DNA of 64,000 nt. Source: Bdellovibrionota bacterium. GTDB lineage: Bacteria > Bdellovibrionota_C > UBA2361 > CAKMMH01. The position numbers were made by a program, and so were the translations under genes. Of this stretch, positions 891 to 20,020 are shown piece after piece. The notes beneath the pieces were generated by a model. It was not told where the DNA came from and did no database searches. It saw only the letters and a list, made by a program, of their open reading frames with translations. The stretch lies in assembly GCA_050952645.1 (NCBI GenBank), contig JBMNLI010000003.1, forward strand, positions 310 to 64,309, in the 5' to 3' direction. Positions within the stretch are counted from its first letter, which is position 1, and each line of letters opens with the position of its first letter.

Positions 891-2151
891 CTACATTAAA
901 TATTGCATCTTTTGAAATTATAACATCTTTTACATTACGCTTAGAAGGAATATCATACATCACGTCTAGCATAATATTTTCCATAATAGCCCGAAGTCCC
1001 CTAGCGCCCGATTTTCTTAAAATAGCCTCTTTTGCTATCTCCTCTAATAATTCATCTGGGATAACTAGATTAACATTTTCTATCGCAAATAATTTTTTAT
1101 ACTGTTTTACTAAAGCATTCTTTGGCTCTGTTAGAACTCTTACGAGTGCTTTTTCATCTAACTCCTCTAATGTGGCTATAATAGGCAAACGCCCTACAAA
1201 TTCTGGTATAAGACCAAAGTGGAGTAAGTCCTCAGGTTGCACCTTTGCTAAAAGCTCCCCCTTTTCAGTCTCCGCACTTATTTTAAGCCTAGATTTATTT
1301 TCCTTTACTCCAAAGCCTAGCTTCTTATCTCCAATTCTTCGCCTTATTATATCTTCTAGCCCTACGAATGCTCCGCCACAAATAAACAATATATTGCTAG
1401 TATCTACTTGCAAAAACTCAGACTGTGGATGCTTTCTGCCCCCCTTAGGAGGAATACTCGTAACTGTGCCTTCTAAAATTTTAAGTAGTGCTTGCTGCAC
1501 TCCCTCACCTGAAACATCTCTAGTAATAGACGGATTATCGGACTTTCTAGATATCTTATCTATCTCATCTATATAAACTATACCTTGCTGCGCTCTTTCA
1601 ACATCGTAATCTGCTGCTTGTAGTAATCCTAAAATAATATTTTCTACATCTTCTCCTACATACCCAGCCTCGGTAAGAGATGTAGCATCTGCTATCGTAA
1701 AAGGAACTTTTAAAATCTTTGCTAGAGTTTGCGCTAGTAAGGTTTTCCCAGACCCAGTAGGCCCTATAAAAAGAACGTTTGATTTCGCAAGTTCAACATC
1801 CTTTGCTATATTGCCTGCCGTTATCCTCTTGCAATGATTATAAACGGCAACCGCTAAAACTTTCTTAGCTCTATCTTGCCCAATTACGTATTCATCTAAA
1901 AAAGCTTTTATTTCACTAGGAATAGGAAGCATGCCTTCATTTAAAGTAGAACTCGACTTTGCCTCAGCAGCAATAATATCATTACATATATTTATACACC
2001 TGTCGCAAATATAGCCCCTATCGCCACCTATAAGCTTAGTTACGCCCTCATCATCTGGAGTCCTACCACAAAATGAACAAACTACGGTTTCAACATCATC
2101 TACGCTTTTAGAGCTTCTCCTATTTTTATTATTATCTTTATCCTTTGCCAA
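844..2151 (-). CDS. clpX: ATP-dependent Clp protease ATP-binding subunit ClpX
   Basis: Zn finger CSFC...CDRC, Walker [34 protein letters not shown] loop; TTG start with AGGAAG upstream. Confidence 0.98.
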
Positions 2152-2951: not shown

Positions 2952-3649
2952 TTAACTTAATGTTGCTAACGCTCCACCTCTTACAGCACTTAGTACTATT
3001 GGGCCAAGAAAATTTATCATATCATCATCTTCGTTATTATCTAAGTTTTTCTTCATTTCTTCTTTAACATCTACGAACGTAATATCTGCTTTTTCAAATA
3101 TCCAATCTAGCACCTTTTCTTCTTTAAACCTACTTATCATTATTTCTTCTAAATTCCTAGCCGTTATATTCTTTTTAAAATTATCGATTGAAACCCATTT
3201 TGATGAAGCGATTTCTTTTAAAAAAGCCTCATATGATGCATCATCAACGCAAATATTTTCATTTTGGATAATATTATTTACTAAATACGACAACCTTAAC
3301 CTTTCTTTAGCAAGAGAATTAAATTCCTTCCTAGCTTTTTCTTTATAAAATTCACCACCCATTTGCTTTAAGGAGCTTATAACCGATTTGCCATAGTCTT
3401 TTAAAATATTATCAATTTCATTATCAAGCATTATTTGTGGAATTTCAAAATCATCACAAATTTCTAATAATTTTTCTCTTATCGCCTCTTCTCTTAAAAC
3501 TTCTTTGTAACTTTTTAAAACTGCCTCTTTACTAATATCAACATTTATAAGCTTCTTTACACTACTAATATCTTTAATAGTATAATTGTATTCTTTTTCA
3601 TTTCTAGTTTATTTAGCTCTAGCTTATTTGATCGTTTAGTTGTGTTCAT
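2952..3649 (-). pseudogene. Trigger-factor paralog, internally deleted (N-terminal strands fused to the C-terminal domain) and frameshifted near its 5' end
   Basis: ORF 2952-3431 matches the tig C domain. Its frame stays open upstream to a stop at 3609-3611 and reads EKEYNYTIKDISSVKKLINVDISKE...EKLLEICDDFEIPQIMLDNEI. The ATGs at 3649 and 3601 are in another frame. Confidence 0.75.
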
Positions 3650-3709
3650 TTTTTATCTTAATAATTTAAATAAGTTAATATAATACTTTTTTTTCTTTAG
3701 TAGTTTTTT

Positions 3710-5173
3710 TTAATCATCACTTGCATTTTTATTGTCTTCTTTTTTATTATTTTCTTTATTATTATTTTCTTTATTATTATTTTCTTTACCATCTTCTACA
3801 CGATCTTCTACACTATCTTCCATAGTGTTTTTTAGCGCTACATAAGAAAATTTAACTTTATCACAAATCGTATCTAGAGCCTTAATCCTACTTAACTCAA
3901 GCATAATGCTAGGCTTTAAATTATTGCTCATCATGTCTTGCCTCATTTTTGCTAACGAAACTCCAACCTTTCTTGAAATATTGCTTAAATAATCGCTATA
4001 CTCTTCCTCGCTAGCTTCAATATTCTCAATCTTTATAATATCATCTAATAAAAATGCGGTTTGCACTCTTTCTTTTGCTAAGCCGTTATAACTATCTCTT
4101 AATGTAGTTCTAATATCTTCAGCTAATTCTTTCATTGAAACAGACTTTTCGTAAATCCCAAATCGATGCGATATAATATCTTCTATTTCCCTATCTAGCA
4201 TCGTTTGAGGAATTTCAAAATCATAACTCTCAAGCAACTTCTTCTTTATAGCTATTTTCTCTCTTTCTTTATTAGCTCTTAAAATTTCATCTTGCAAACT
4301 TTCCTTAACTTTATCTCTAAGTTCACTAACACTGCTAAGAGAAAAGTTGCTTTCAAGAAAATTTTTTGTAAGCTCTGGTTCTTTCTTTTGGAAAATTTCT
4401 TTTAATTTTACTACATATACGACTTTGCCTGCATCAAACTTGCCTTTTTTGTTCGATATCTCTATTAAAGAAGGGCACTCTTTAGTTTCTCCTTTTTTCA
4501 TAGTTAACAAAAGCTCTCTAACAGCACTATCAGAGCTTCCATCAATTTTACTATTCCATATGCTCTCGCTTAACCCTCGCACATGCTCTTTTTCCTCTTC
4601 TAAAGAGCCATCTTCATATTTGTAGCTAAGAGTAAATTTTACGGTATCATCTTTTGTAGGCGTATCTCTATCTTCTACAGCCTTTAACGTGCTATACCTT
4701 GATATTAAATCTTGCATAGCCTTATCGAGCCTTTCTTCGCTGTATTCATCCTTTTGTACTTCAATCTCGATGCCAACATATTCTGGCACTTTTGGAGGTG
4801 TTGGAAAAAGCTCTACGGTGGCAGTAAAAGAAAAACCATCTTCCTTAGTATCGCTCGTAATATCAACATTAGTAACGGAAATCACTTTTAAATCGCTTTC
4901 TTTAATGCAACTATCTATCGCCTCATTTAATAATTTTTCTTTTGCATCTACCATCATGGCTTCCTTATAAATCGCCTCAACCATATCTTTAGGAGCCTTC
5001 CCTTGGCGAAAGCCTTTTATTTTCATATTTCTTGCAGCATAATTTAATAAATTTTGATATTTCTTTGAAAAATCTTCTTTACTTACCGATATATCTAACA
5101 ACTTTACAACGCTATTTACATCAGTAATAGTGCAATTAAACTTTCTTTCAGATTTTTGACCTTCTAAACTCAT
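3710..5173 (-). CDS. tig: Trigger factor
   Basis: GFRQGKAP ribosome-binding signature, FKBP-like middle domain, FEIPQTMLDREI in the C domain; upstream of clpP-clpX. Confidence 0.95.
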   Translation of the reverse strand: MSLEGQKSERKFNCTITDVNSVVKLLDISVSKEDFSKKYQNLLNYAARNMKIKGFRQGKAPKDMVEAIYKEAMMVDAKEKLLNEAIDSCIKESDLKVISVTNVDITSDTKEDGFSFTATVELFPTPPKVPEYVGIEIEVQKDEYSEERLDKAMQDLISRYSTLKAVEDRDTPTKDDTVKFTLSYKYEDGSLEEEKEHVRGLSESIWNSKIDGSSDSAVRELLLTMKKGETKECPSLIEISNKKGKFDAGKVVYVVKLKEIFQKKEPELTKNFLESNFSLSSVSELRDKVKESLQDEILRANKEREKIAIKKKLLESYDFEIPQTMLDREIEDIISHRFGIYEKSVSMKELAEDIRTTLRDSYNGLAKERVQTAFLLDDIIKIENIEASEEEYSDYLSNISRKVGVSLAKMRQDMMSNNLKPSIMLELSRIKALDTICDKVKFSYVALKNTMEDSVEDRVEDGKENNNKENNNKENNKKEDNKNASDD

Positions 5174-5390
5174 TACTACCCCTTTTATTATTCCTTAACA
5201 TAGAAAAAATTAAATATTAAATTAAATATTAAAAAATATTACAATTACATCTTTACTTGCGAATTTTAAAATATAAAAACAAAAAATAGGATAACAGAAA
5301 GCACTAAATTTTACAACGTTTTAACTTAAAACTTTAATAGAAAAACCTTTTAATTTAGTTTAGGAAAACTTTGATAAATCGATATAAACT

Positions 5391-5837
5391 CTATTTGCAA
5401 GGCACAAATAATATAGGAACTTTTATTTCTCTTAAAACTTTTTCAGACACACCACCAACGACAAATCTCTTTAATCCCGTTCGACCACTACTAGACATTA
5501 CAATCATATCTACATTGTTTTGTTGTGCATAATTTACTATCTCTGTATGCACTGCCCCTTTAGCCTCAAGGACTACTGGTTTTAATTTTTTATAATCAAA
5601 CTTAAGTGCTATGTTATTTAAATCCTTTTCTACTTCTTCTAATATTTTTTTATGCACATCTTCGGAAATTAAATTAGGTTGTTCTAAGATTGAAAATAAT
5701 GCAGTCTCCGCAATGTCCGTAACGACGGCTAGCAAATCTATACTTGCATCGTACTTCGTAGCTATATCCTTAGCGATAGGAAAAGCTTGCTTTGAATTTT
5801 CAGATAAATCTGTGCAAAGTAATATTTTTTTAAGCAT
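5391..5837 (-). CDS. Universal stress protein (UspA family)
   Basis: KKILLCTDLSENS N-terminus; DMIVMSSSGRTGLKRFVVGGVSEKVLR...VPILFV C-terminus. Confidence 0.93.
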   Translation of the reverse strand: MLKKILLCTDLSENSKQAFPIAKDIATKYDASIDLLAVVTDIAETALFSILEQPNLISEDVHKKILEEVEKDLNNIALKFDYKKLKPVVLEAKGAVHTEIVNYAQQNNVDMIVMSSSGRTGLKRFVVGGVSEKVLREIKVPILFVPCK

Positions 5838-6005
5838 ACGCTTATACTATATAAAAAATTAAATATCTTATTTATTAAATTTTAGCATAACCTACATTTT
5901 ATTTAACACTAAACATTACACTAAATATTACATTAAATATAATTGTATTATTATAATTATGCTATTGTACTATTATGCTATTAAATGTAATTGCATTACT
6001 ACATT

Positions 6006-6587
6006 TTATTGCATTATAAACTCTTTAAAATACACGGCAACTACCACACTGTCTTCAATCGCTAACGCATCGTTTATCGCATCTATTAGCTCTTCTCTTA
6101 AAGCCTCTTTGCCATCTTGCGTTAAAAGTTCTTCAGGAGTTTTATAAGATAGCGTATTTATAACGGCATCTCTTATCATAGCCTCTCGTTTTTCAAAAAT
6201 CTTAGGAAGTGTTTTTGCAGAAACCTCTTCTTCTCCTTCCTCTTTTTTACTTTCTTTTTCTGCTTGAGTCCCACTTTCACCACCTATCAAGCTCGGGTCG
6301 TATTCAACAAGAATTGTAGTTCTTAAATAAGTAGTAGGCTTAGCTAAATTTACCACGAATGTATCTAGCTCTTGCACTTCATATCTTGACTGTTCCTCTG
6401 CCATTTCTGTCTCCACTTCTTTATTAGCATTCGCATCATCTTTTTTACCAAAGACGAAAAAAGCTACGACACCTCCTATAATAATTAACGCTACGAGTAT
6501 TATAACTATTAATAAAACTGGAGATTTTTTTTGTTTTACATTTTCATTATTTTCTTCTTTAGAATCTTTTTTTTCTTTATCAGCCAT
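6006..6587 (-). CDS. fliL: Flagellar basal body-associated FliL family protein
   Basis: Single N-terminal TM helix; FVVNLA, IRDAVINTLS, GKEALREEL, VYFKEFIMQ. Confidence 0.9.
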   Translation of the reverse strand: MADKEKKDSKEENNENVKQKKSPVLLIVIILVALIIIGGVVAFFVFGKKDDANANKEVETEMAEEQSRYEVQELDTFVVNLAKPTTYLRTTILVEYDPSLIGGESGTQAEKESKKEEGEEEVSAKTLPKIFEKREAMIRDAVINTLSYKTPEELLTQDGKEALREELIDAINDALAIEDSVVVAVYFKEFIMQ

Positions 6588-9141: not shown

Positions 9142-10791
9142 TTAAGATGCAATCAACTCACGTGCTGAAGCTTTAGAAGCTTCCGTAACCTCATAGCCTG
9201 CAAGCATTCTTGCGATTTCTTCTATTCTTTCATCTCCTTTAATTTTAGTTATTTGGCTTAAAACCTTACTATTATCGTTTTTACTATCATTTTTAAACAC
9301 TACATAATGTGCATCAGCCAAAGATGCTACTTGTGGTAAATGCGTTATGCATATAACTTGCGAAGTCTCGGCTAGTTCTTTTAATTTAATGCCGACCGCT
9401 CTAGCCGTCTTTCCAGACATTCCGCTATCTACTTCATCAAAAACTAAAACATTTACCCCATATTTATCTTTTAATATCTTTTTTAAAACTAATAAGATTC
9501 TAGAGAGTTCCCCTCCAGAAGCTATTCTCTTTAATGGCTTAACATCGTAGCCCTTATTTAAAGAGAGCATAAATTCTACATCATCTACCCCAGTTTCGTC
9601 AACTGCTGTTTTATTAAATAGCACTTTAAAATTTGCATGTGGCAAGTTTAGTTCTTCAAGTTCTATTTTTACTAAATTTTCAAGTTTTTTAGCGTGTTTT
9701 CTTCTCTCAGCAGATATTTTCTCTGCAAAATCAACTACTTTAATTTTTAATTTTTCTACATTTTCTTTAAAAGTTTCTAAATTATCAAAGTTTTCATAAG
9801 TTTTTAATTCATTTAAAATACTTTCGTAGAGTGCTATAAGCCCAGCTTCATTAGTAGCATATTTTCGCTCGAGTGAAGCTATTAAAGAGAGTTCTTCTCT
9901 TAGTTCTTCTAAATTTTCATCATCTAAATTTAACGTAGACGTGTATTTATTATACTCATTTTCAAAATCGGTTATAAGAGAAGATATATTTGAAAAACTT
10001 TCTTCTACGCTTCCTACATTTTCATCGCATCTTGAAATCACTGAAAGCCTTTTTTCAATTTCACTTACTAAGGAAAACAGCCCATTTTCTTCTAGCAGTA
10101 AACTTAAAATCTCATTTGAAATATTTTGAATTTTTTCTATTTGAGTAAACTTTTTTATCTCTTTTTCTAAGAACGATTTTCTATCTTTTTTTAAAGATAT
10201 TCTCTCTAGGTCTGTTTTTAACGCATTAAGTTCAGCTATTCTTAGAGCAGTTTGATTTTTCTTATTTACAAAATCGTTATATTGCTTTTCAAGTTTCTTA
10301 TAATTATCGAACAAAGCTCTATATTCAATTAGCTTATCTCTTAAATTTGCATAGCGATCTAAAACCTCTAAATGGTAAGAGGCGTTTAATAAATCTGCTT
10401 GTTCATTTTGACTACATAGAGAAATTATTTTCGATGATATCTCTGATAAAGTAGAAATATTTGATATTATTCCATTTATATAAATGCGAGACTTATCTTT
10501 GCTTATAACTCTACTTATTATAAGCTCTCTTTCTTTAGCCACATCGGGGAGCGTTAAAAAAATATCGTCTTCAAGTAAACTTAAATCGAAAACTGCTTGA
10601 ATTTTACACTCCGAGCCATTTGGGCCTATAATATCAACGTTTGCTCGCCCACCTAGGAGCATATTAAGTGCAGAAATTATTATAGACTTTCCAGCACCAG
10701 TTTCACCAGTAATTACATTGAATCCTTTATGAAAATCGATTGTAGATTTTTTGATGATTGCCAAATTTTCGATATCTAGTTCTTTTAACAT
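9142..10791 (-). CDS. recN: DNA repair protein RecN
   Basis: ITGETGAGKS, ASGGELSR, VFDEVDSG, CITHLPQVA, EEIARMLAG. Confidence 0.97.
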   Translation of the reverse strand: MLKELDIENLAIIKKSTIDFHKGFNVITGETGAGKSIIISALNMLLGGRANVDIIGPNGSECKIQAVFDLSLLEDDIFLTLPDVAKERELIISRVISKDKSRIYINGIISNISTLSEISSKIISLCSQNEQADLLNASYHLEVLDRYANLRDKLIEYRALFDNYKKLEKQYNDFVNKKNQTALRIAELNALKTDLERISLKKDRKSFLEKEIKKFTQIEKIQNISNEILSLLLEENGLFSLVSEIEKRLSVISRCDENVGSVEESFSNISSLITDFENEYNKYTSTLNLDDENLEELREELSLIASLERKYATNEAGLIALYESILNELKTYENFDNLETFKENVEKLKIKVVDFAEKISAERRKHAKKLENLVKIELEELNLPHANFKVLFNKTAVDETGVDDVEFMLSLNKGYDVKPLKRIASGGELSRILLVLKKILKDKYGVNVLVFDEVDSGMSGKTARAVGIKLKELAETSQVICITHLPQVASLADAHYVVFKNDSKNDNSKVLSQITKIKGDERIEEIARMLAGYEVTEASKASARELIAS

Positions 10792-10908
10792 AGTAGAGAC
10801 ATAAGTAGAGAAAAACAGTATTTAAATCGTGTTTAAATAGTATTTACAAATATATTATACACAATTTTTGCGATTATTTATAATACATTATTTTTATAAA
10901 AAACTCTA

Positions 10909-11814
10909 CTAACCTGCCATTTGACCTAAACTAATATTATTAATTTTCGCATAAGTTTCTCTGTAAACACTTTTAAGATAATCTTTATATTGGCATTGAC
11001 TAATGCTATCCATTTGCTCTTTAAAATACTCTAATGAAATATAACCTAACTTAAGAGCTATTTCTTCAGGGCAAGACATTTTTAGACCTTGCCTAGCTTC
11101 TAAGATTTCTACAAACGTAGAAGCTTCGGATAATGCCGATGTAGTTCCACTATCTAGCCACGCAGTTCCTCGCCCTACTGGGACAACTTTTAATTGCTTC
11201 CTTTTTAAATATTCAACGTTTACATCGGTTATTTCATATTCTAGACGCTTAGATGGCTTTAAATTTTTTGCGATTTCGACTACATCATTATCATATATAT
11301 ACAAACCAGGAACTATATAATTTGATTTTGGCTCCTTTGGTTTTTCCTCTATACTAATAACATTTCCCTCAATATCAAACTCTATTACACCAAAATCTTG
11401 AGGATTAGTTACGGGATATCCAAAAATAGTAGCCCCAGTTTTATGTTCCCTTATAGAAGAGATATGACCAAAATTTCCATGAAATATATTATCACCTAAT
11501 ATTAAAGTGACGTTAGAACTACCAATAAAATCTTTACCTAAAACGAACGCTTCTGCAATACCTCTTGGGCTTTGTTGAACGATATAAGTAAAGTTTAACC
11601 CAAATTTTTTCCCATCTCCGAGAAAATTTGCAAGCACTGGCGTATCTTTAGGAGTCGATATTATACATATGTCTCTTATCCCTGCTAGCATCAACGTGCT
11701 TAAGGGATAATAAATCATAGGCTTATCAAAAACTGGCAAGAGTTGCTTGCAACACACTTGCGTTAACGGATATAACCTTGAACCCGTTCCACCTGCTAAA
11801 ATGATTCCTTTCAT
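10909..11814 (-). CDS. rfbA: Glucose-1-phosphate thymidylyltransferase
   Basis: GIILAGGTGSRLYP, KQLLPVFDKPMIYYP, LILGDNIF, EEKP, AWLDSGT. Confidence 0.96.
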   Translation of the reverse strand: MKGIILAGGTGSRLYPLTQVCCKQLLPVFDKPMIYYPLSTLMLAGIRDICIISTPKDTPVLANFLGDGKKFGLNFTYIVQQSPRGIAEAFVLGKDFIGSSNVTLILGDNIFHGNFGHISSIREHKTGATIFGYPVTNPQDFGVIEFDIEGNVISIEEKPKEPKSNYIVPGLYIYDNDVVEIAKNLKPSKRLEYEITDVNVEYLKRKQLKVVPVGRGTAWLDSGTTSALSEASTFVEILEARQGLKMSCPEEIALKLGYISLEYFKEQMDSISQCQYKDYLKSVYRETYAKINNISLGQMAG

Positions 11815-13913: not shown

Positions 13914-15302
13914 ATGAATAAAAAAAATATATTGCAAAACAAAGCACTTACGCTTTTATTTACGATTTTATTTTCATCTTTTCTAATAAATAATTTTTTC
14001 TTAGTAAATATAGCATTTGCTAAAGAAAATAATAAAAATATAAAAGATAATAAAAATATAGATGATAGTAAAAATATAAAAAAAACCGATAAGCATCCTT
14101 TTTTACTTTTAAAATCCGATACCGTTTGTGCTAGTGGGTTTTTTACTAATAATCAAAAAATAATAACTGCAAGCCACGTAGTAAAAAGTTGTGTGAGAAA
14201 CAATTGCGATCATTTTAGAATATTTTATAATGATAAAAACGTTTTATTTTCATCTTTAAAAATAGATAAAATTTCTTATGCGTTAGATATCGCTATTTTA
14301 GATATCGATTTTTTAGATGAAGCTCAAAAAGCGTTATTTAAAAATGGCATCGACATATCTAAAACGAATAAAGTTTATCCTAATGAAGAACTTAAAATTT
14401 TAGGCTTTCCAAAGTGTGGAAATTTTCAGATTTCTAAAGCCGTGGTATCTGAAGATAACAACTTACAAATTCACGTGCTATCTAAAATTCATTTTGGGAG
14501 TAGTGGCTCTCTAGTGTTAAACAAGGACGATAAGTTTGTAGGCATGGCAACTAAGAGTCAGAGTGTTCGCTCTGCCTTAAAATCGCTTATCGTAGGCTCG
14601 ACGCTTAATGCAAATATTATAAAGGGCGTTCATATAAATAAGCTTTCAAAATTAAAAGACTCTAAAATTTTACCTTATGAGATTTCAAAACTAAATGAGT
14701 ATTACGAGCAAAATATTTTTAATAATTTTTCTCCTACTAGATATCCTAATACGTTTAATTATATGGTTATGGCGAATAATATTTTTGTTAATTTACCTCT
14801 TTATAAAGTGCAAGGCAAAAGTTTTATTAAGGATATTTTACAAAGTTCATATAATGCCCCTTATATTCTCTCTAATATTTCGTATTCTAGACCATTAAGA
14901 AAGGCTGAAGAAGATGCAGAAAAGCTAGTGCTATTATATTCATTTGAGAAAAAGGGTTTTACTAATAATGATTTTAAAATTTTAGATGCAACTAAATTAA
15001 AAAACTCTTTTAATATAGTTGAAAGAAGCAAAGAGCATAAAGAGAAATTAAATTTAATAGTAGATAATGCTAAGAAGCACACTCAATATAGTTATATAGT
15101 TTCGTTTTTAGCAACTAGCATTTGGTTTATCATTCTTTTTATATTGATTATATTTTTCTTAGTATTTTCTACGGGCTATTATTCTTCAAAATTTACGGGA
15201 AGCAAAAAAAGAAGATTCTTAATAACTATTCTTTTTTTATTTACCTGGCCTATATCTCTAATAGTATATTTATTTATTTTAAGGAAAAGCAAAAAGAAAT
15301 AA
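13914..15302 (+). CDS. Trypsin-like serine protease with signal peptide and C-terminal TM helices
   Basis: Triad motifs ITASHV (His), LDIAIL (Asp), HFGSSGS (Ser); signal peptide ending AFA; two hydrophobic C-terminal segments. Confidence 0.75.
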   Translation: MNKKNILQNKALTLLFTILFSSFLINNFFLVNIAFAKENNKNIKDNKNIDDSKNIKKTDKHPFLLLKSDTVCASGFFTNNQKIITASHVVKSCVRNNCDHFRIFYNDKNVLFSSLKIDKISYALDIAILDIDFLDEAQKALFKNGIDISKTNKVYPNEELKILGFPKCGNFQISKAVVSEDNNLQIHVLSKIHFGSSGSLVLNKDDKFVGMATKSQSVRSALKSLIVGSTLNANIIKGVHINKLSKLKDSKILPYEISKLNEYYEQNIFNNFSPTRYPNTFNYMVMANNIFVNLPLYKVQGKSFIKDILQSSYNAPYILSNISYSRPLRKAEEDAEKLVLLYSFEKKGFTNNDFKILDATKLKNSFNIVERSKEHKEKLNLIVDNAKKHTQYSYIVSFLATSIWFIILFILIIFFLVFSTGYYSSKFTGSKKRRFLITILFLFTWPISLIVYLFILRKSKKK

Positions 15303-15364: not shown

Positions 15365-15446
15365 ATTCACGTAATTGTTGTTACTGCATTTGTGTAAGAG
15401 TAAGGCTATATAATATAATAGTTTAAGCAGTAGCAACTTCTTAAAC

Positions 15447-15539
15447 ATGGAAGATCCTATGGAAAATATAAATGAAAATGTAATTGTTAACTATGATGAA
15501 ATAGAAAGTGAAAATTGTAGCTGTTGCTACCACGTATAG
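15447..15539 (+). CDS. Putative RiPP precursor peptide MEDPMENINENVIVNYDEIESENCSCCYHV (alternative start ATG 15459, 26 aa)
   Basis: Hand-translated ORF below the ORF-track cutoff. Acidic leader with a Cys/Tyr/His-rich C-terminus; lies directly upstream of an RRE-rSAM/SPASM gene and is followed by a stem-loop. Confidence 0.8.
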   Translation: MEDPMENINENVIVNYDEIESENCSCCYHV

Positions 15540-15573
15540 TCATGTGTGGGTACAACACTTTTATTTTAATTTT

Positions 15574-15616
15574 AAGCATAAGTTATAAAAATCGTAATTT
15601 TTGATAACTTATGCTT
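15574..15616 (+). terminator. Stem-loop between precursor and maturase (leaky terminator or mRNA stabiliser)
   Basis: AAGCATAAGTTATAAAAAT-cgta-ATTTTT(g)ATAACTTATGCTT: 19-bp stem with one bulge, followed by a T-rich tract. Confidence 0.75.
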
Positions 15617-15645
15617 TTGTGTTATTTTAAACTAAAGTCCAAAAT

Positions 15646-16983
15646 ATGTTTATAATCCCTGAAATTCAATTTGTACTAGATAAAGAAAAAGATAAAATAT
15701 ATATTATTAATCTTATAAATGCAGCAACTAGCTTAATAAATAAAGATTTATACAATAAGATTCTAAATTTAGATTTCAATGGTATAGATAGGGCTACACT
15801 TGAAAATTTGAAAAAACGGCGATACTTATTTGAAACAGAAAATGAATATAAAAAATTTATAACATCTTTAGAACAAAGCATTGAACAAAAAGAAAATGAA
15901 TCAATTCCTAATTTTCTATTAATTCCAACATACTCCTGCAATTTAAATTGTATATATTGCTATGAAAAATCATATAAAATTGACAATATAAACACTAGAA
16001 ATAGCATAGGAATATTCAATAAATACTTAACAATTATTGAAACCATTCTTAAAAAATATATCATAGATAATAATAAAGATGTTCATATAACGCTAATGGG
16101 TGGGGAACCATTGATGAAAAAAAATTTAGAATTAATTGAACACATGCTTAAAAATATTAATTCGAAGGGCTATAGCATCAATATAGTAACAAATGGTATT
16201 GAATTAGAATATTTTTTAGATTTATTAACAAAATATAATGTTTCGCATATACAAATAACACTAGATGGAGACAGCGAAATAAATGATAAAAGACGAATTT
16301 ACCCTAAAGGTGGAAGTAGTTTCGCAAAAATTATTGAAAATTTGAAATTGGCATTAGAAAAGGATTTGAAAGTTTATTTGCGTGTGAATGTCGATGAAGA
16401 AAATATAACTGGTCTTCCTAATTTAGCTAGAATTCTATGTAAAAATTTTAATAATGATAAAAACTTAAAACCTTATATCTACTTATTACAGGATGGTGGT
16501 TGTTCAGGTGATGATAAAATAATCAATGAAAATATCGGAATCAATAAAATCTACGAACTAGAAAACAAAAATCCAGAAATGAAAATATTCCACAAAAAAT
16601 ATCATCCAGCAAAGTTTTTGCAATCCATTTTTGAAAATAAAATATATCACCCTGTAATGAGACATTGTGGTGCATCAAAAAATCAATATATTTTCGATTT
16701 CAATGGACGAGTATATAAATGTTGGCATGGTATAGGCAGTAAAGAAAGCGTCTGTGGTGAAATAAATGATACAATTAAATTTAATTCGCTTAATGATATA
16801 TGGAAAAACAGAAGCACTAAAAATATTAAAAAATGTAATAATTGCAAATATAGATACATTTGTGGTACTGGATGTCCTGCTGCTACACATAAGGAAGTTA
16901 CGGCAGATATTATAAAAACTACTAGTTGTGTTGATTATGAAACTTTAATAAATACAATGATTATAAACCATTTTAACAGGTAA
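15646..16983 (+). CDS. Radical SAM/SPASM peptide maturase with probable N-terminal RRE
   Basis: CNLNCIYC, GGEPL, SPASM cysteines C...GRVYKC...CNNCKYRYICGTGC...C; ~85-aa N-terminal extension with a strand-strand-strand-helices pattern. Confidence 0.92.
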   Translation: MFIIPEIQFVLDKEKDKIYIINLINAATSLINKDLYNKILNLDFNGIDRATLENLKKRRYLFETENEYKKFITSLEQSIEQKENESIPNFLLIPTYSCNLNCIYCYEKSYKIDNINTRNSIGIFNKYLTIIETILKKYIIDNNKDVHITLMGGEPLMKKNLELIEHMLKNINSKGYSINIVTNGIELEYFLDLLTKYNVSHIQITLDGDSEINDKRRIYPKGGSSFAKIIENLKLALEKDLKVYLRVNVDEENITGLPNLARILCKNFNNDKNLKPYIYLLQDGGCSGDDKIINENIGINKIYELENKNPEMKIFHKKYHPAKFLQSIFENKIYHPVMRHCGASKNQYIFDFNGRVYKCWHGIGSKESVCGEINDTIKFNSLNDIWKNRSTKNIKKCNNCKYRYICGTGCPAATHKEVTADIIKTTSCVDYETLINTMIINHFNR

Positions 16984-16988
16984 AAAAT

Positions 16989-18989
16989 ATGATAGAAAAT
17001 GAACCAGTTGTCACATTAGGAATATTTGCTCACGCAAATGCAGGGAAAACTACCATAACTGAAAAACTATTATGTGAAACTAATGAGATTAAACAACCAG
17101 GAAAAGTTGATGAAGGCACAACAGTAACAGATAATTTAAAAGTTGAAAAAGAAAGAGGAATATCAGTTAGATCTGCATTAGTTAATTTCAAATTACCATC
17201 ATTAAAAAAAGTTCAATTAATAGATACTCCAGGACATATTGATTTTTCGGCAGAAGTTGAGCGTGCAGTTTCTGTTTTAGATGCGGGTATCCTTGTAGTA
17301 TCTGGTGTTGAAGGCGTTGAAGCACAAACATATACTATTTGGGAAGCTCTTATAAAAAAAAATGTACCAGTTATTATTTTCATAAATAAAATGGATAGAA
17401 AGGGAGCAAGCTTTAATGATGTGATAAAACAATTACAAGATGAGTTAAGCGAAGCTATCGTTCCAATAGTTAATATTAAAATTAACAATGAAAAAATAAT
17501 TTTATCAGATATTTCCCCAATGACACTTTTAGATAAACTTAGTGAATTCGATGATGAATGTGTTGAGATGTATATGAAATGTTCTGATAGCAAAACATTT
17601 CCTGAAAAAAAATGGTTAGAAGATAAAATTAAAGATTTATTAGAAAAACAAAAAATTTTCCCTGTAATTGGTGGAAGTGCATTACAAGGAGACGGTATCA
17701 AAGAATTTGTTTTATGTTTAGATAAGTTTTTACCAACATTTAAAAGAAACGAAACTGATGAATTTTCTGCTATTGTTTATTCAATAAGAGTTGATAAAAC
17801 CGAGGATTTATACGTTAAAATATTATCTGGAAGCGTGAGAAAAAGACAAATGGTAAGAATTTCTGACGAGGAAACACAAAAAATAACTGATATTAAAGTT
17901 CCCTCTGTCCTTAATAATATTTCAGTAGAATCTGCAAAAAGTGGAGATGTCGTAATACTAAATGGGCTAACCGTACCAGCTGGAACAACGTTGGGCAATG
18001 CTAAAATTAAACCTATTAAATTCGTTAAACCACTTTTGAACATGAGCATAAAATCTAATAATATGCTAAAAGTTGTAGAAGTCCTAAGAATACTTCAAAA
18101 AGAAGATCCATATTTAGAATTTCATTATAACAAACTAACAAGTGAAATCACCATTAGTTTAATGGGGGAGGTTCAAGCTCAAGTTATAGAACAAATAGCT
18201 AAAGAAAGATTCAATTTAGAAATTCAAATGGTAAATCCAACAATTATTTGTAAAGAAACACCACAAAAAATTGGTAAAGCCAAATGTTCTTATACGAAAG
18301 TTTCTGGTCTAGAACTAGAAATTGAACCATTAGCAGAAGGGAGTGGATTTATATTTGAAAGCAAAATCCCAACAGGAACTCTATTGAGAAAATATCAAAG
18401 ACAAGTCGAACGTTTAATAATGCAGTATAAAGAACAAGGATTATACGGATGGACAGTTTCCGATGCAAAAGTTTCATTAGTAGACGGATACTTTGATTCT
18501 ATGGGGTCACAAACTTTAGATTTTAATATTGCAACACCGATAGCTTTTTTTAGAGCTTTGAGAAATGCAAATACAAAAATACTTGAACCAGTGTGCAAGT
18601 TTAGTCTAAAAGCAGAGGAAAAAGATATAGGAACTATATCCACAAGACTGGAAATAAAAGAAAGCAATTTTCGCATCCGAACTGGACTGGGAAAGTATGT
18701 CTATTTTGAAGGGACATCACGACTTGAAAATATATTGTCATTTCAAAATGAAATAAGTAAATTAACATCTGGAAAAGGAGAATTTATTTATGAACTTCAT
18801 CACTATCAAGAATGTATAGATCAATCAAGAGAAATTCCTTTCATCGGATTCGACCCTAGAAATGAAGCTAATTTTGTTGTAAATCAAATGGGAGCAAGTA
18901 TGGTTCCGTTAGATGCTGTTCCAACTAAAAAGAAAAATACGAGTTCAAAATATGCATGGAAAAAATTAAAAAAAAGTTTGGATAGATAG
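16989..18989 (+). CDS. TetM/TetO-like (EF-G superfamily) translational GTPase, divergent ribosomal-protection-like protein
   Basis: AHANAGKTT, ERGISV, DTPGH, NKMD, GSAL; EDPYL, LMGEVQ, EQGLYGW, ILEP. Length and domain layout match the RPP family. Confidence 0.9.
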   Translation: MIENEPVVTLGIFAHANAGKTTITEKLLCETNEIKQPGKVDEGTTVTDNLKVEKERGISVRSALVNFKLPSLKKVQLIDTPGHIDFSAEVERAVSVLDAGILVVSGVEGVEAQTYTIWEALIKKNVPVIIFINKMDRKGASFNDVIKQLQDELSEAIVPIVNIKINNEKIILSDISPMTLLDKLSEFDDECVEMYMKCSDSKTFPEKKWLEDKIKDLLEKQKIFPVIGGSALQGDGIKEFVLCLDKFLPTFKRNETDEFSAIVYSIRVDKTEDLYVKILSGSVRKRQMVRISDEETQKITDIKVPSVLNNISVESAKSGDVVILNGLTVPAGTTLGNAKIKPIKFVKPLLNMSIKSNNMLKVVEVLRILQKEDPYLEFHYNKLTSEITISLMGEVQAQVIEQIAKERFNLEIQMVNPTIICKETPQKIGKAKCSYTKVSGLELEIEPLAEGSGFIFESKIPTGTLLRKYQRQVERLIMQYKEQGLYGWTVSDAKVSLVDGYFDSMGSQTLDFNIATPIAFFRALRNANTKILEPVCKFSLKAEEKDIGTISTRLEIKESNFRIRTGLGKYVYFEGTSRLENILSFQNEISKLTSGKGEFIYELHHYQECIDQSREIPFIGFDPRNEANFVVNQMGASMVPLDAVPTKKKNTSSKYAWKKLKKSLDR

Positions 18990-18991
18990 TT

Positions 18992-20020
18992 ATGAATATT
19001 TCTTTTAAAAATAAAAAACAATTGCCTTTTGATAAGTTAATCCAAGTTGAAAATAAAATATATCTTACTCAACAAATAAAAAATTATGATATAATTAAAT
19101 CTATTGATATTGAAGATATAAAAAAGAGAAGAACAAGAAGTTTTTATGAAAAAGATTTTAATATCCCACAAAATATTTTTTTACTAACTTCATTTAGGGG
19201 ATATGTTATATTTGGCAGGAAAATACGCTCAATTTTAAATATTGAAAAAAAAATAAATGCAATTAATTGTAGCATGATTACAGCCTCTATGTTATTGGGA
19301 ATTTTTAAAGAAAAATACAAAATAAATAGAACAATAAAAGTTAGCTACTACCCTCTTTACGATGAAGAAAAAATTTACATATTCAATGAAATAAAAAAAG
19401 ACCGAAATATCGATATAAGCTTTCCTTATACATATAAAAATTTCTACACAAATAAAGAGAAAATATGTTCCGAATCGGGCTGGAGTTTTAATTATAAAAA
19501 AAAGAAATATTTAGGATATGGCGAGCATCATATAAGAAAATTCACAATAGATTTTTTTAAAGACTATGATTTTAGATTAAAAAAAATAATATATGATCCA
19601 GCTTGCTCTACAGGAGAATTTTTAAAAAATTTTAAAAAAAACTTTCCTAATTCTTATACAATCGGACACGATTTAAGCAAAGAAATGATAAACCATGCCA
19701 AAAATTATGTTAATGAATATTTTTGTTGCAATGCATTAAATTCGCCATTAAAGCCCAATAGTGTTGATATAATGTTTTTAAGATTTTTAAATTCAGAAAT
19801 TGTTTCTACTAAAATGGCTTATAAAATTATGCGTGTTCTTCTGAAAAAAATTAAAATTGGAGGGCTAATAGTTTGCTTTGGTCATACACCTGTATTACTA
19901 AAAAAACCATGGTTTAAGAAATTAAAATTAAAAATTTTAAATTGTAATGGATATGATAAAAGTAGAGATGCGATATTTCAATATTATGTATTACAAGTAA
20001 CTAAAACAACACTTTTGTAG
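18992..20020 (+). CDS. Class I SAM-dependent transferase (methyltransferase fold)
   Basis: Motif I YDPACSTGEFL, GHDLSKEMI, SVDIMFLRFLN; starts 2 nt after the GTPase stop. Confidence 0.82.
   Translation: MNISFKNKKQLPFDKLIQVENKIYLTQQIKNYDIIKSIDIEDIKKRRTRSFYEKDFNIPQNIFLLTSFRGYVIFGRKIRSILNIEKKINAINCSMITASMLLGIFKEKYKINRTIKVSYYPLYDEEKIYIFNEIKKDRNIDISFPYTYKNFYTNKEKICSESGWSFNYKKKKYLGYGEHHIRKFTIDFFKDYDFRLKKIIYDPACSTGEFLKNFKKNFPNSYTIGHDLSKEMINHAKNYVNEYFCCNALNSPLKPNSVDIMFLRFLNSEIVSTKMAYKIMRVLLKKIKIGGLIVCFGHTPVLLKKPWFKKLKLKILNCNGYDKSRDAIFQYYVLQVTKTTLL

Follow-up and report, generated by a model that had tools for sequence, protein, structure and literature searches.

Among described peptides that are made on the ribosome and modified after translation (RiPPs), the SCIFF peptides and ranthipeptides (CteA/CteB, PapB) come closest to the locus reported here: in both cases a short precursor with cysteines in its core is encoded directly upstream of a radical S-adenosylmethionine (SAM) maturase that carries a RiPP recognition element (RRE) and a SPASM domain. 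The locus lies in a stretch of 64,000 nucleotides from a Bdellovibrionota bacterium (GCA_050952645.1, contig JBMNLI010000003.1, positions 310 to 64,309), hereafter the window, and comprises a small open reading frame (ORF) at 15447-15539 followed by genes for a radical SAM (rSAM)/SPASM enzyme, a translational GTPase and a SAM-dependent transferase. We consider this ORF to be, very probably, the precursor gene of a previously undescribed rSAM RiPP family, most likely encoding 26 residues from position 15459, a reading that draws on comparison with related loci and on a modelled complex of peptide and maturase.

The solved structures nearest to the window maturase, both by sequence (E 3.5e-24 for 5wgg) and by fold (E 3e-16, TM 0.60), are Protein Data Bank (PDB) entries 5wgg and 5why, which we take to be CteB and which are titled 'thioether bond formation in the biosynthesis of sactipeptides'; the structural alignment has an identity of only 16-18%. 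The window core differs from those of SCIFF peptides and ranthipeptides in being one C-x-Y-H unit instead of a many-Cys sequence, and its accessory genes are others. Membership in the SCIFF, ranthipeptide or sactipeptide families was rejected, with the enzyme scoring 74.1 bits against a cutoff of 425 for the SCIFF maturase and 111.9 bits against 340 for PapB. No curated NCBIfam model reaches its cutoff on the maturase: the best-scoring are the CefB 'Cys-every-fifth' maturase (NF038107, 139.7 bits, cutoff 600) and TIGR04463 (110 bits, cutoff 525), and membership in either was rejected on these scores. We know of no experimental description of CefB; a repeat peptide from one related locus (L039) has a Cys at every fifth residue, as in the CefB name. 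The CcpM maturase (TIGR04068, 61.6 bits, cutoff 500) and the triceptide maturases YhhB (88.9 bits, cutoff 445) and FxsB (56.4 bits, cutoff 370) were rejected likewise. The window core does contain a Y-H-x triplet, the aromatic-x-x motif of triceptides, although its use in that way is not readable from sequence. The window peptide itself has no NCBIfam match at E up to 0.1, and the CLI_3235 bacteriocin precursor model (TIGR04065, cutoff 26 bits), also rejected, gave only a weak match to the L039 peptide (16.5 bits, E 0.0071).

By analogy of design only, microcin C is likewise a ribosomal peptide with an anti-translation warhead and an aminocarboxypropyl transferase, the latter being MccD according to PMC11869996. 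Unlike the window cassette, the microcin C cluster has neither an rSAM enzyme nor a GTPase. Immunity in that cluster is given by MccF, an S66 peptidase; S66 genes are also found in seven of the related loci described below, and none is part of the window cassette. A full-text literature search returned no description of the cassette or of a CxYH rSAM peptide, supplementary survey tables being outside its reach. Set beside the known systems, the locus would count as an rSAM RiPP whose core motif, CxYH, is new and whose accessory gene set is unprecedented.

The probable precursor gene and its family

The peptide gene, its parts and the adjacent maturase gene are as follows, with residues numbered from the second ATG.

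15447..15539, plus strand: small ORF of 30 codons plus TAG, its first ATG without a Shine-Dalgarno-like sequence upstream
15459..15539, plus strand: preferred reading of the precursor gene, with 26 codons and a stop (MENINENVIVNYDEIESENCSCCYHV), aligning without gaps to 26-residue relatives
15459..15515, plus strand: leader, residues 1-19, with a near-invariant M-x-S/N-[ILVF]-N motif (N5 invariant) and a V-I-V patch
15516..15536, plus strand: core or tail, residues 20-26, C-S-C-C-Y-H-V, with C22 at 15522-15524, Y24 at 15528-15530 and H25 at 15531-15533
15646..16983, plus strand: radical SAM/SPASM peptide maturase, 445 residues, with an RRE-like domain at the N-terminus (about residues 1-85)

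The ORF lies in a gap of 343 nucleotides between a trypsin-like peptidase gene (13914-15302) and the rSAM gene, and neither strand holds an overlapping ORF of at least 60 residues at 15447-15539. As stated in the original prediction, made from the letters of the window, the frame has 30 codons (MEDPMENINENVIVNYDEIESENCSCCYHV; ATG at 15447, second in-frame ATG at 15459, TAG at 15537-15539), or 26 from the second ATG, and its translation ends in a seven-residue tail that contains the three Cys of the peptide, its His and one of its two Tyr. Its description as unannotated also stands: an exact look-up in a collection of 15 billion proteins returned neither the 30-residue nor the 26-residue form.

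Since an open frame of 30 codons is unremarkable in DNA of 31% GC (we estimate a chance of about 9% per start), relatives were compared. These were reached through an alignment of the window rSAM with 27 homologues and a metagenome contig scan that yielded 78 loci; examined were 26 loci, the window included, in which the rSAM is at least 35% identical and upstream sequence is present. A small ORF ending in C-x-Y-(H/N) plus 0-6 residues is found in 25 of the 26, so that the lack of conservation named at the outset as evidence against a precursor is not what the relatives display. The motif is strictly CxYH in 23 loci, two more (L088 and L092) end in C-T-Y-N-A-H, and in L040 no CxYH peptide was found. 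The peptide gene is on the strand of the rSAM gene in 24 of the 26 loci, 63-243 nucleotides upstream of it (591 in L041); that of L037 lies 1.7 kb away on the other strand. One and the same regular-expression scan found no such ORF upstream of 45 distant rSAM loci (40,040 bases) and matched only 15447-15539, both on the two strands of the 64-kb window and in the six frames of the 1,947,914-base genome. Among 17 distinct 26-codon DNA sequences, invariant Tyr24 is written TAC in 9 and TAT in 8, invariant His25 CAC in 6 and CAT in 11, and Ser21 with AGC, AGT, TCT and TCA, thus from both the AGY and the TCN families; such synonymous codon use at invariant residues argues for selection on the protein.

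In an alignment of 20 distinct peptides, most of them exactly 26 residues long (consensus MKSINKKVVVxxxxVxxxNASCHYHx), every sequence has N5, C22, Y24 and H25, and conservation is at least 90% at M1, S3 and S21; the leader motif and the C-terminal core are conserved and the middle is variable. C20, which precedes the invariant Cys by two residues, is shared only with the L025 peptide, the closest relative (54% identity), and C23 occupies the variable x position of CxYH. Because C22, Y24 and H25 are invariant and S21 is nearly so, while C20 and C23 are not conserved, the functional core as read from the alignment is (S)CxYH, and C20 and C23 of the window peptide are lineage-specific. A conserved tail upstream of homologous rSAM genes had thus been rightly anticipated, whereas the CxCCxH-like form proposed for it gives way to (S)CxYH; a search built on CxCCxH would have come up empty. 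The unit is repeated in three loci, three times in L039 and twice each in L034 and L087; core repeats are common in RiPPs. In the 15-billion-protein collection, exact look-up of eight related forms (seven peptides, one of them in two lengths) found six to be absent, and the two that are present are longer repeat peptides, one of 39 residues named 'hypothetical protein' and one of 32 residues in an unnamed cluster. Genes for 26 residues escape gene callers, and such clusters then look like orphan 'radical SAM protein' genes.

Translation most likely starts at the second ATG (15459), judging from the sequence around both starts. The resulting 26-residue form is favoured because GGAAG stands 5 nucleotides before the second ATG and nothing comparable stands before the first, and because the relatives are mostly exactly 26 residues long. 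GAGGAGG-type sites precede the homologous start in relatives, and the L025 peptide starts at the homologous position with a GTG behind AAGGAGG. The peptide of L023 carries an M-D-D-K extension at the same place as the four extra residues of the window ORF, with ATT at the usual start position; given this likeness, translation from ATG 15447 may still yield the 30-residue form. A search for sequencing runs listed no RNA data set; DNA reads from four runs gave short contig pieces only, which are identical over 15506-15700 and leave most of the ORF uncovered.

Two variations on the arrangement deserve mention. L026 has two identical 26-residue precursor genes in tandem upstream of its rSAM gene (124-201 and 258-335), each with its own ribosome-binding site. 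The C-T-Y-N-A-H peptides of L088 (4844-4909) and L092 (4778-4843) are shorter, at 22 residues, and share the MKSIN start; downstream of them the reading frames are interrupted under both code 11 and code 4, pointing to decay or to an assembly rich in errors.

The maturase and the modelled complex

The maturase combines Radical_SAM and SPASM domains, with eight further invariant Cys beside the CxxxCxxC motif. Its AlphaFold model (predicted local distance difference test, pLDDT, 88.4) has an N-terminal beta-beta-beta-alpha-alpha-alpha domain, and the nearest folds to the model are 5why/5wgg, SuiB, TigE and anSME. By its modelled fold this N-terminal domain is RRE-like; a search of the maturase gave no Pfam PqqD match at E up to 0.001.

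Co-folding of the rSAM with the 30-residue peptide gave a score of 0.82, compared with 0.02 for the best of three controls. Of 80 solved complexes 58 reach this score, as do 2 of 110 mismatched pairs; these counts hold only roughly here, because alignments of our own were used. At least 95% of contacts recur between runs, and the pLDDT of the partner is no lower than 77. In the numbering of the 30-residue form, which applies to the contacts given here, M-E-N-I-N (residues 5-9) is held most tightly, against rSAM residues 25-32, which form the third strand of the N-terminal domain; the contacts of lowest error join peptide residues 5-9, 11 and 12 with rSAM residues 19, 25-35 and 328/331. The V-I-V patch (residues 12-14) is also in the modelled interface. 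Residues 16-29 touch barrel and SPASM residues, the tail meeting the barrel at 147, 149, 181, 203 and 279 and the SPASM domain at 340-347, 359-361 and 410. The suggestion that a VIVNY patch binds the RRE is therefore borne out in part by the model: the patch belongs to the interface, and it is not the whole recognition element, with the tightest contacts made by M-E-N-I-N. The broader proposal of a bipartite precursor, leader plus C-terminal core, for the adjacent rSAM agrees with the family-wide conservation, the RRE-like domain of the maturase and a co-fold that passes its controls.

Downstream genes and cassette variants

Downstream of the precursor, the window holds the following further features.

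15574..15628, plus strand: hairpin of 19 bp (15574-15616) and U-rich tract, between the precursor and the rSAM gene
16989..18989, plus strand: translational GTPase, 666 residues, sister group to Tet(M)/Tet(O)/TetB(P), starting 5 nucleotides after the rSAM stop
18992..20020, plus strand: isonocardicin-synthase-like class I SAM-dependent transferase, 342 residues, starting 2 nucleotides after the GTPase stop

The gene order is thus peptide, hairpin, rSAM/SPASM, GTPase and transferase. The hairpin has a dG of -24.4 kcal/mol (z -2.74), equalled by 1 in 200 shuffles. Hairpins of unrelated sequence stand at the same place in most of 24 other intergenic regions that were folded, several of them followed by T runs. 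A consensus scan missed the hairpin at 15574-15616. The hairpin is probably a leaky intrinsic terminator, and its leakiness would let the precursor transcript outnumber those of the enzymes.

The GTPase is closest to Tet(O) (306 bits) and Tet(M) (291 bits), and its best PDB and plasmid matches are Tet(M), Tet(O) and TetB(P). Its identity to these three proteins is 31-33%, against 25% to the elongation factor EF-G of its own genome. Its G motifs are intact, it has the five-domain build of a translational GTPase as in the Tet proteins, and its structural neighbours in the Atlas are Tet clusters, the nearest of which is mostly from Bacillota. In a tree of 10 cassette GTPases, three Tet proteins and the genome's own EF-G, the last on a long branch, the cassette GTPases form a separate clade (support 100/99 against 98/95). 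The domain IV loop, the one that reaches the tetracycline site in Tet proteins, reads Y-Y-S-P-V-S in Tet(O) and F-D-S-M-G-S in all 13 of the 13 aligned cassette GTPases. Membership in the tetracycline ribosomal protection proteins was rejected, as the GTPase stays below the cutoff of the equivalog model NF012153 (775 bits; 453.6 for the window, 535.7 for L022), falls outside the Tet clade and differs in this loop. Residues ~617-666 form a conserved basic C-terminal extension, D-P-R-N-E ... K-K-K-K-x-S-R-S-K-F, which lies beyond the Tet(O)-aligned region.

By sequence, the transferase is a near full-length homologue of isonocardicin synthase (NAT, PDB 8zhu; E 9e-35, residues 89-335 of 342 against 82-324 of a 326-residue chain), and its next PDB match stands only at E 0.046. 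On this homology it is a putative 3-amino-3-carboxypropyl transferase. In PMC11869996, the two characterised family members named, isonocardicin synthase and the bivalve homologue McalACT, alkylate phenols by aminocarboxypropyl transfer from SAM, and such activity is said not to be easily predicted from sequence. Both act on non-ribosomal substrates, whereas the presumed substrate here would be a ribosomal peptide. A gene on Bacillus cereus 03BB108 plasmid pBFI_2 (L101, 5633-7846), annotated 'YcaO-like family protein', is 34% identical in its C-terminal part to residues 60-335 of the window transferase and looks, from this alignment, like a fusion of the transferase type with another peptide-modifying enzyme.

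Across the related loci (L088 and L092 were left out of the cassette counts), the GTPase gene follows the rSAM gene in 19, window included, and in 15 of these the transferase gene comes next. L034 (3164-6030, 53% GC) has a two-unit CxYH peptide, an rSAM and a glycosyltransferase-like gene, and L040 (3914-7489) has an Rgg regulator, an rSAM and a transporter of the major facilitator superfamily. Given variants of the L034 type, the pair of rSAM and CxYH peptide is the constant core and the other genes are accessory. Beyond these genes, 12 related loci have one resembling alanine racemase, 7 encode an S66 LD-carboxypeptidase and 11 a divergent LysR regulator, with examples in L022 at 9433-10500, 10512-11333 and 3758-4651; Pfam assignment was made on these L022 representatives. 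The window has none of the three, and its genome yields no S66 match and, away from the cassette, only a racemase of 29% identity. An M29 aminopeptidase is present in 4 loci. The trypsin-like peptidase (Trypsin_2, plus strand), whose gene ends 145 nucleotides upstream of the precursor on the same strand, was rejected as a leader protease: no related locus has a homologue at E 1e-5.

The proposed product, its rivals and the spread of the cassette

The leader N-terminus would lie as a strand against rSAM residues 25-32, the core would be lodged between SAM barrel and SPASM domain, and the rSAM would then crosslink within the four-residue C-x-Y-H unit. We put it at about even that this crosslink is a thioether joining the invariant Cys with Tyr or His, the most likely form, because the Cys is invariant, the L039 unit recurs every five residues and the nearest solved relatives include an entry with thioether in its title. 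With somewhat less assurance, and by analogy, we suggest that the transferase adds a 3-amino-3-carboxypropyl group, most likely to the Tyr phenol. In the same measure we suspect that the Tet(M)-like GTPase shields the ribosomes of the producer from the product; Otr(A) of the oxytetracycline producer is a precedent for such self-protection. Taken together, these steps would amount to a new RiPP class, a small C-x-Y-H warhead, Cys-crosslinked and Tyr-aminocarboxypropylated, that binds the ribosome, with the GTPase as immunity factor, a picture that we offer tentatively and hold to be doubtful as a whole. Were it true, a RiPP cluster would for the first time show immunity of the ribosomal-protection type, and a ribosomal peptide would for the first time be seen to receive an aminocarboxypropyl group on a side chain. 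A resistance-like GTPase encoded in a RiPP cluster points directly, and in a way that can be tested, to a peptide that targets the ribosome, and it bears on the origin of Tet-type protection proteins. If the reading as an rSAM precursor holds, the locus represents a widespread uncalled precursor family with more than 20 distinct peptides and more than 120 listed maturase clusters, a new minimal core motif, CxYH, and a combination of rSAM maturase, ribosomal-protection-like GTPase and aminocarboxypropyl-type transferase that is undescribed in the searchable literature.

Several observations weigh against this proposal in whole or in part. L025 and L038 have the GTPase without the transferase and the Tyr is invariant there too, so that it is not conserved as an alkylation site only; the GTPase, in turn, is not obligatory, its place in L034 being taken by the glycosyltransferase-like gene, and it misses the ribosomal protection cutoff. 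Homology cannot separate methyl from aminocarboxypropyl transfer. The co-fold could pass through likeness to solved complexes of an RRE with a leader (SuiB-SuiA, 5v1t; ChlB-leader, 9gm3), both of them among the fold matches of the maturase model, and since complexes of this kind exist, its pass shows, at the level of a model, a peptide design compatible with maturase recognition, not binding. The conserved cassette has neither a leader peptidase nor an exporter and so fits badly with a secreted antibiotic. Finally, the cassette is dispensable, as the only congener searched (G001) has it in decayed form: the remnant (L011, G001:C41:95422-99180; 950-2121, minus strand) consists of 214-261 residues of the rSAM C-terminus and 177 residues of the GTPase, without a precursor and in a context unlike that of the window, with a MurG-like gene upstream.

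Three other explanations of the ORF were weighed. It could be a chance open frame in AT-rich intergenic DNA, in keeping with the ordinariness of 30 codons at this GC content and with promoter-like hits in the region at chance level (35 against 34.8 expected), and this is refuted to the point of being scarcely conceivable by the homologues in 25 of 26 loci against none in 45 controls, the single instance in the genome and the synonymous codons at invariant residues. It could also encode a regulatory leader peptide, a translation-coupled attenuator like that before tet(M), and not an enzyme substrate. The terminator-like hairpin between ORF and operon, the Tet-like GTPase in the operon and tet(M) records with an annotated leader peptide all fit such a role, which the original prediction had itself raised as a way for the precursor reading to fail. 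Neither the minimum free energy nor the centroid fold of 15400-15630, however, contains an alternative antiterminator pairing of the 5' arm of the hairpin, and comparison with the tet(M) leader by hhalign brings out no likeness (probability 0.12%, 2 aligned columns), which leaves an attenuator without support. The peptide is moreover conserved at the amino acid level at both ends and carries tandem CxYH repeats in three loci, its neighbour is an RRE-bearing peptide maturase with a co-fold that passes controls, and L034 has a CxYH peptide where no GTPase follows the rSAM; an attenuator is in our estimate very improbable.

The main rival, which we judge unlikely and keep because the conserved cassette lacks an exporter and a dedicated leader protease, accepts the peptide as the rSAM substrate and makes it the scaffold of a small molecule, a cofactor or a translation modulator that acts inside the cell, as with pyrroloquinoline quinone (PQQ) or mycofactocin. 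General peptidases would trim the modified peptide, and the EF-G-like GTPase would be the user or partner of the product and not an immunity factor. A core of only 4-5 residues at the extreme C-terminus suits this, as do the exopeptidases of some loci (S66 and M29), the alanine-racemase-like gene in 12, and the fact that the GTPase forms a clade apart, with an invariant domain IV loop peculiar to it. A housekeeping cofactor, by contrast, would not be expected from so patchy and dispensable a cassette: among 124 species genomes of 64 genera in the phylum of the window, matches are confined to a single genus, namely to the window's genome and to the congener with the decayed copy. Repeated cores in three loci better suit a secreted or multi-copy product, and the closest relatives of the GTPase are ribosomal protection proteins that displace a drug.

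Returning to the favoured reading, an rSAM precursor with its accessory cassette, its distribution as seen in the sequences fits horizontal spread. A single-protein rSAM scan of the genome contigs and a plasmid search with the rSAM found only distant radical SAM proteins (at most 32% and 33% identity, respectively), and public assemblies list more than 120 rSAM homologue clusters (clustered at 90% identity) that are 44-53% identical. Most cassette loci have 24-33% GC and strong Shine-Dalgarno sites; the GC of the window cassette (0.23-0.31; genome 0.31) does not decide the matter of transfer. As part of the joint reading, and with the same reserve as the ribosome-binding warhead, the cassette may have spread widely, across hosts as different as low-GC gut bacteria, an anaerobic-digester lineage and a bacterium recoded to TGA as Gly. 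The last of these is the organism of L037 (24.9% GC), where the M29 aminopeptidase gene (3625-4788, plus strand) lies directly upstream of the rSAM gene (5001-6350, plus strand) and the precursor gene is at 3057-3143 on the minus strand. Its rSAM gene contains 10 in-frame TGA codons, all at Gly positions of the family, from which it follows that TGA stands for Gly in this organism (code 25, of the SR1/Gracilibacteria type).

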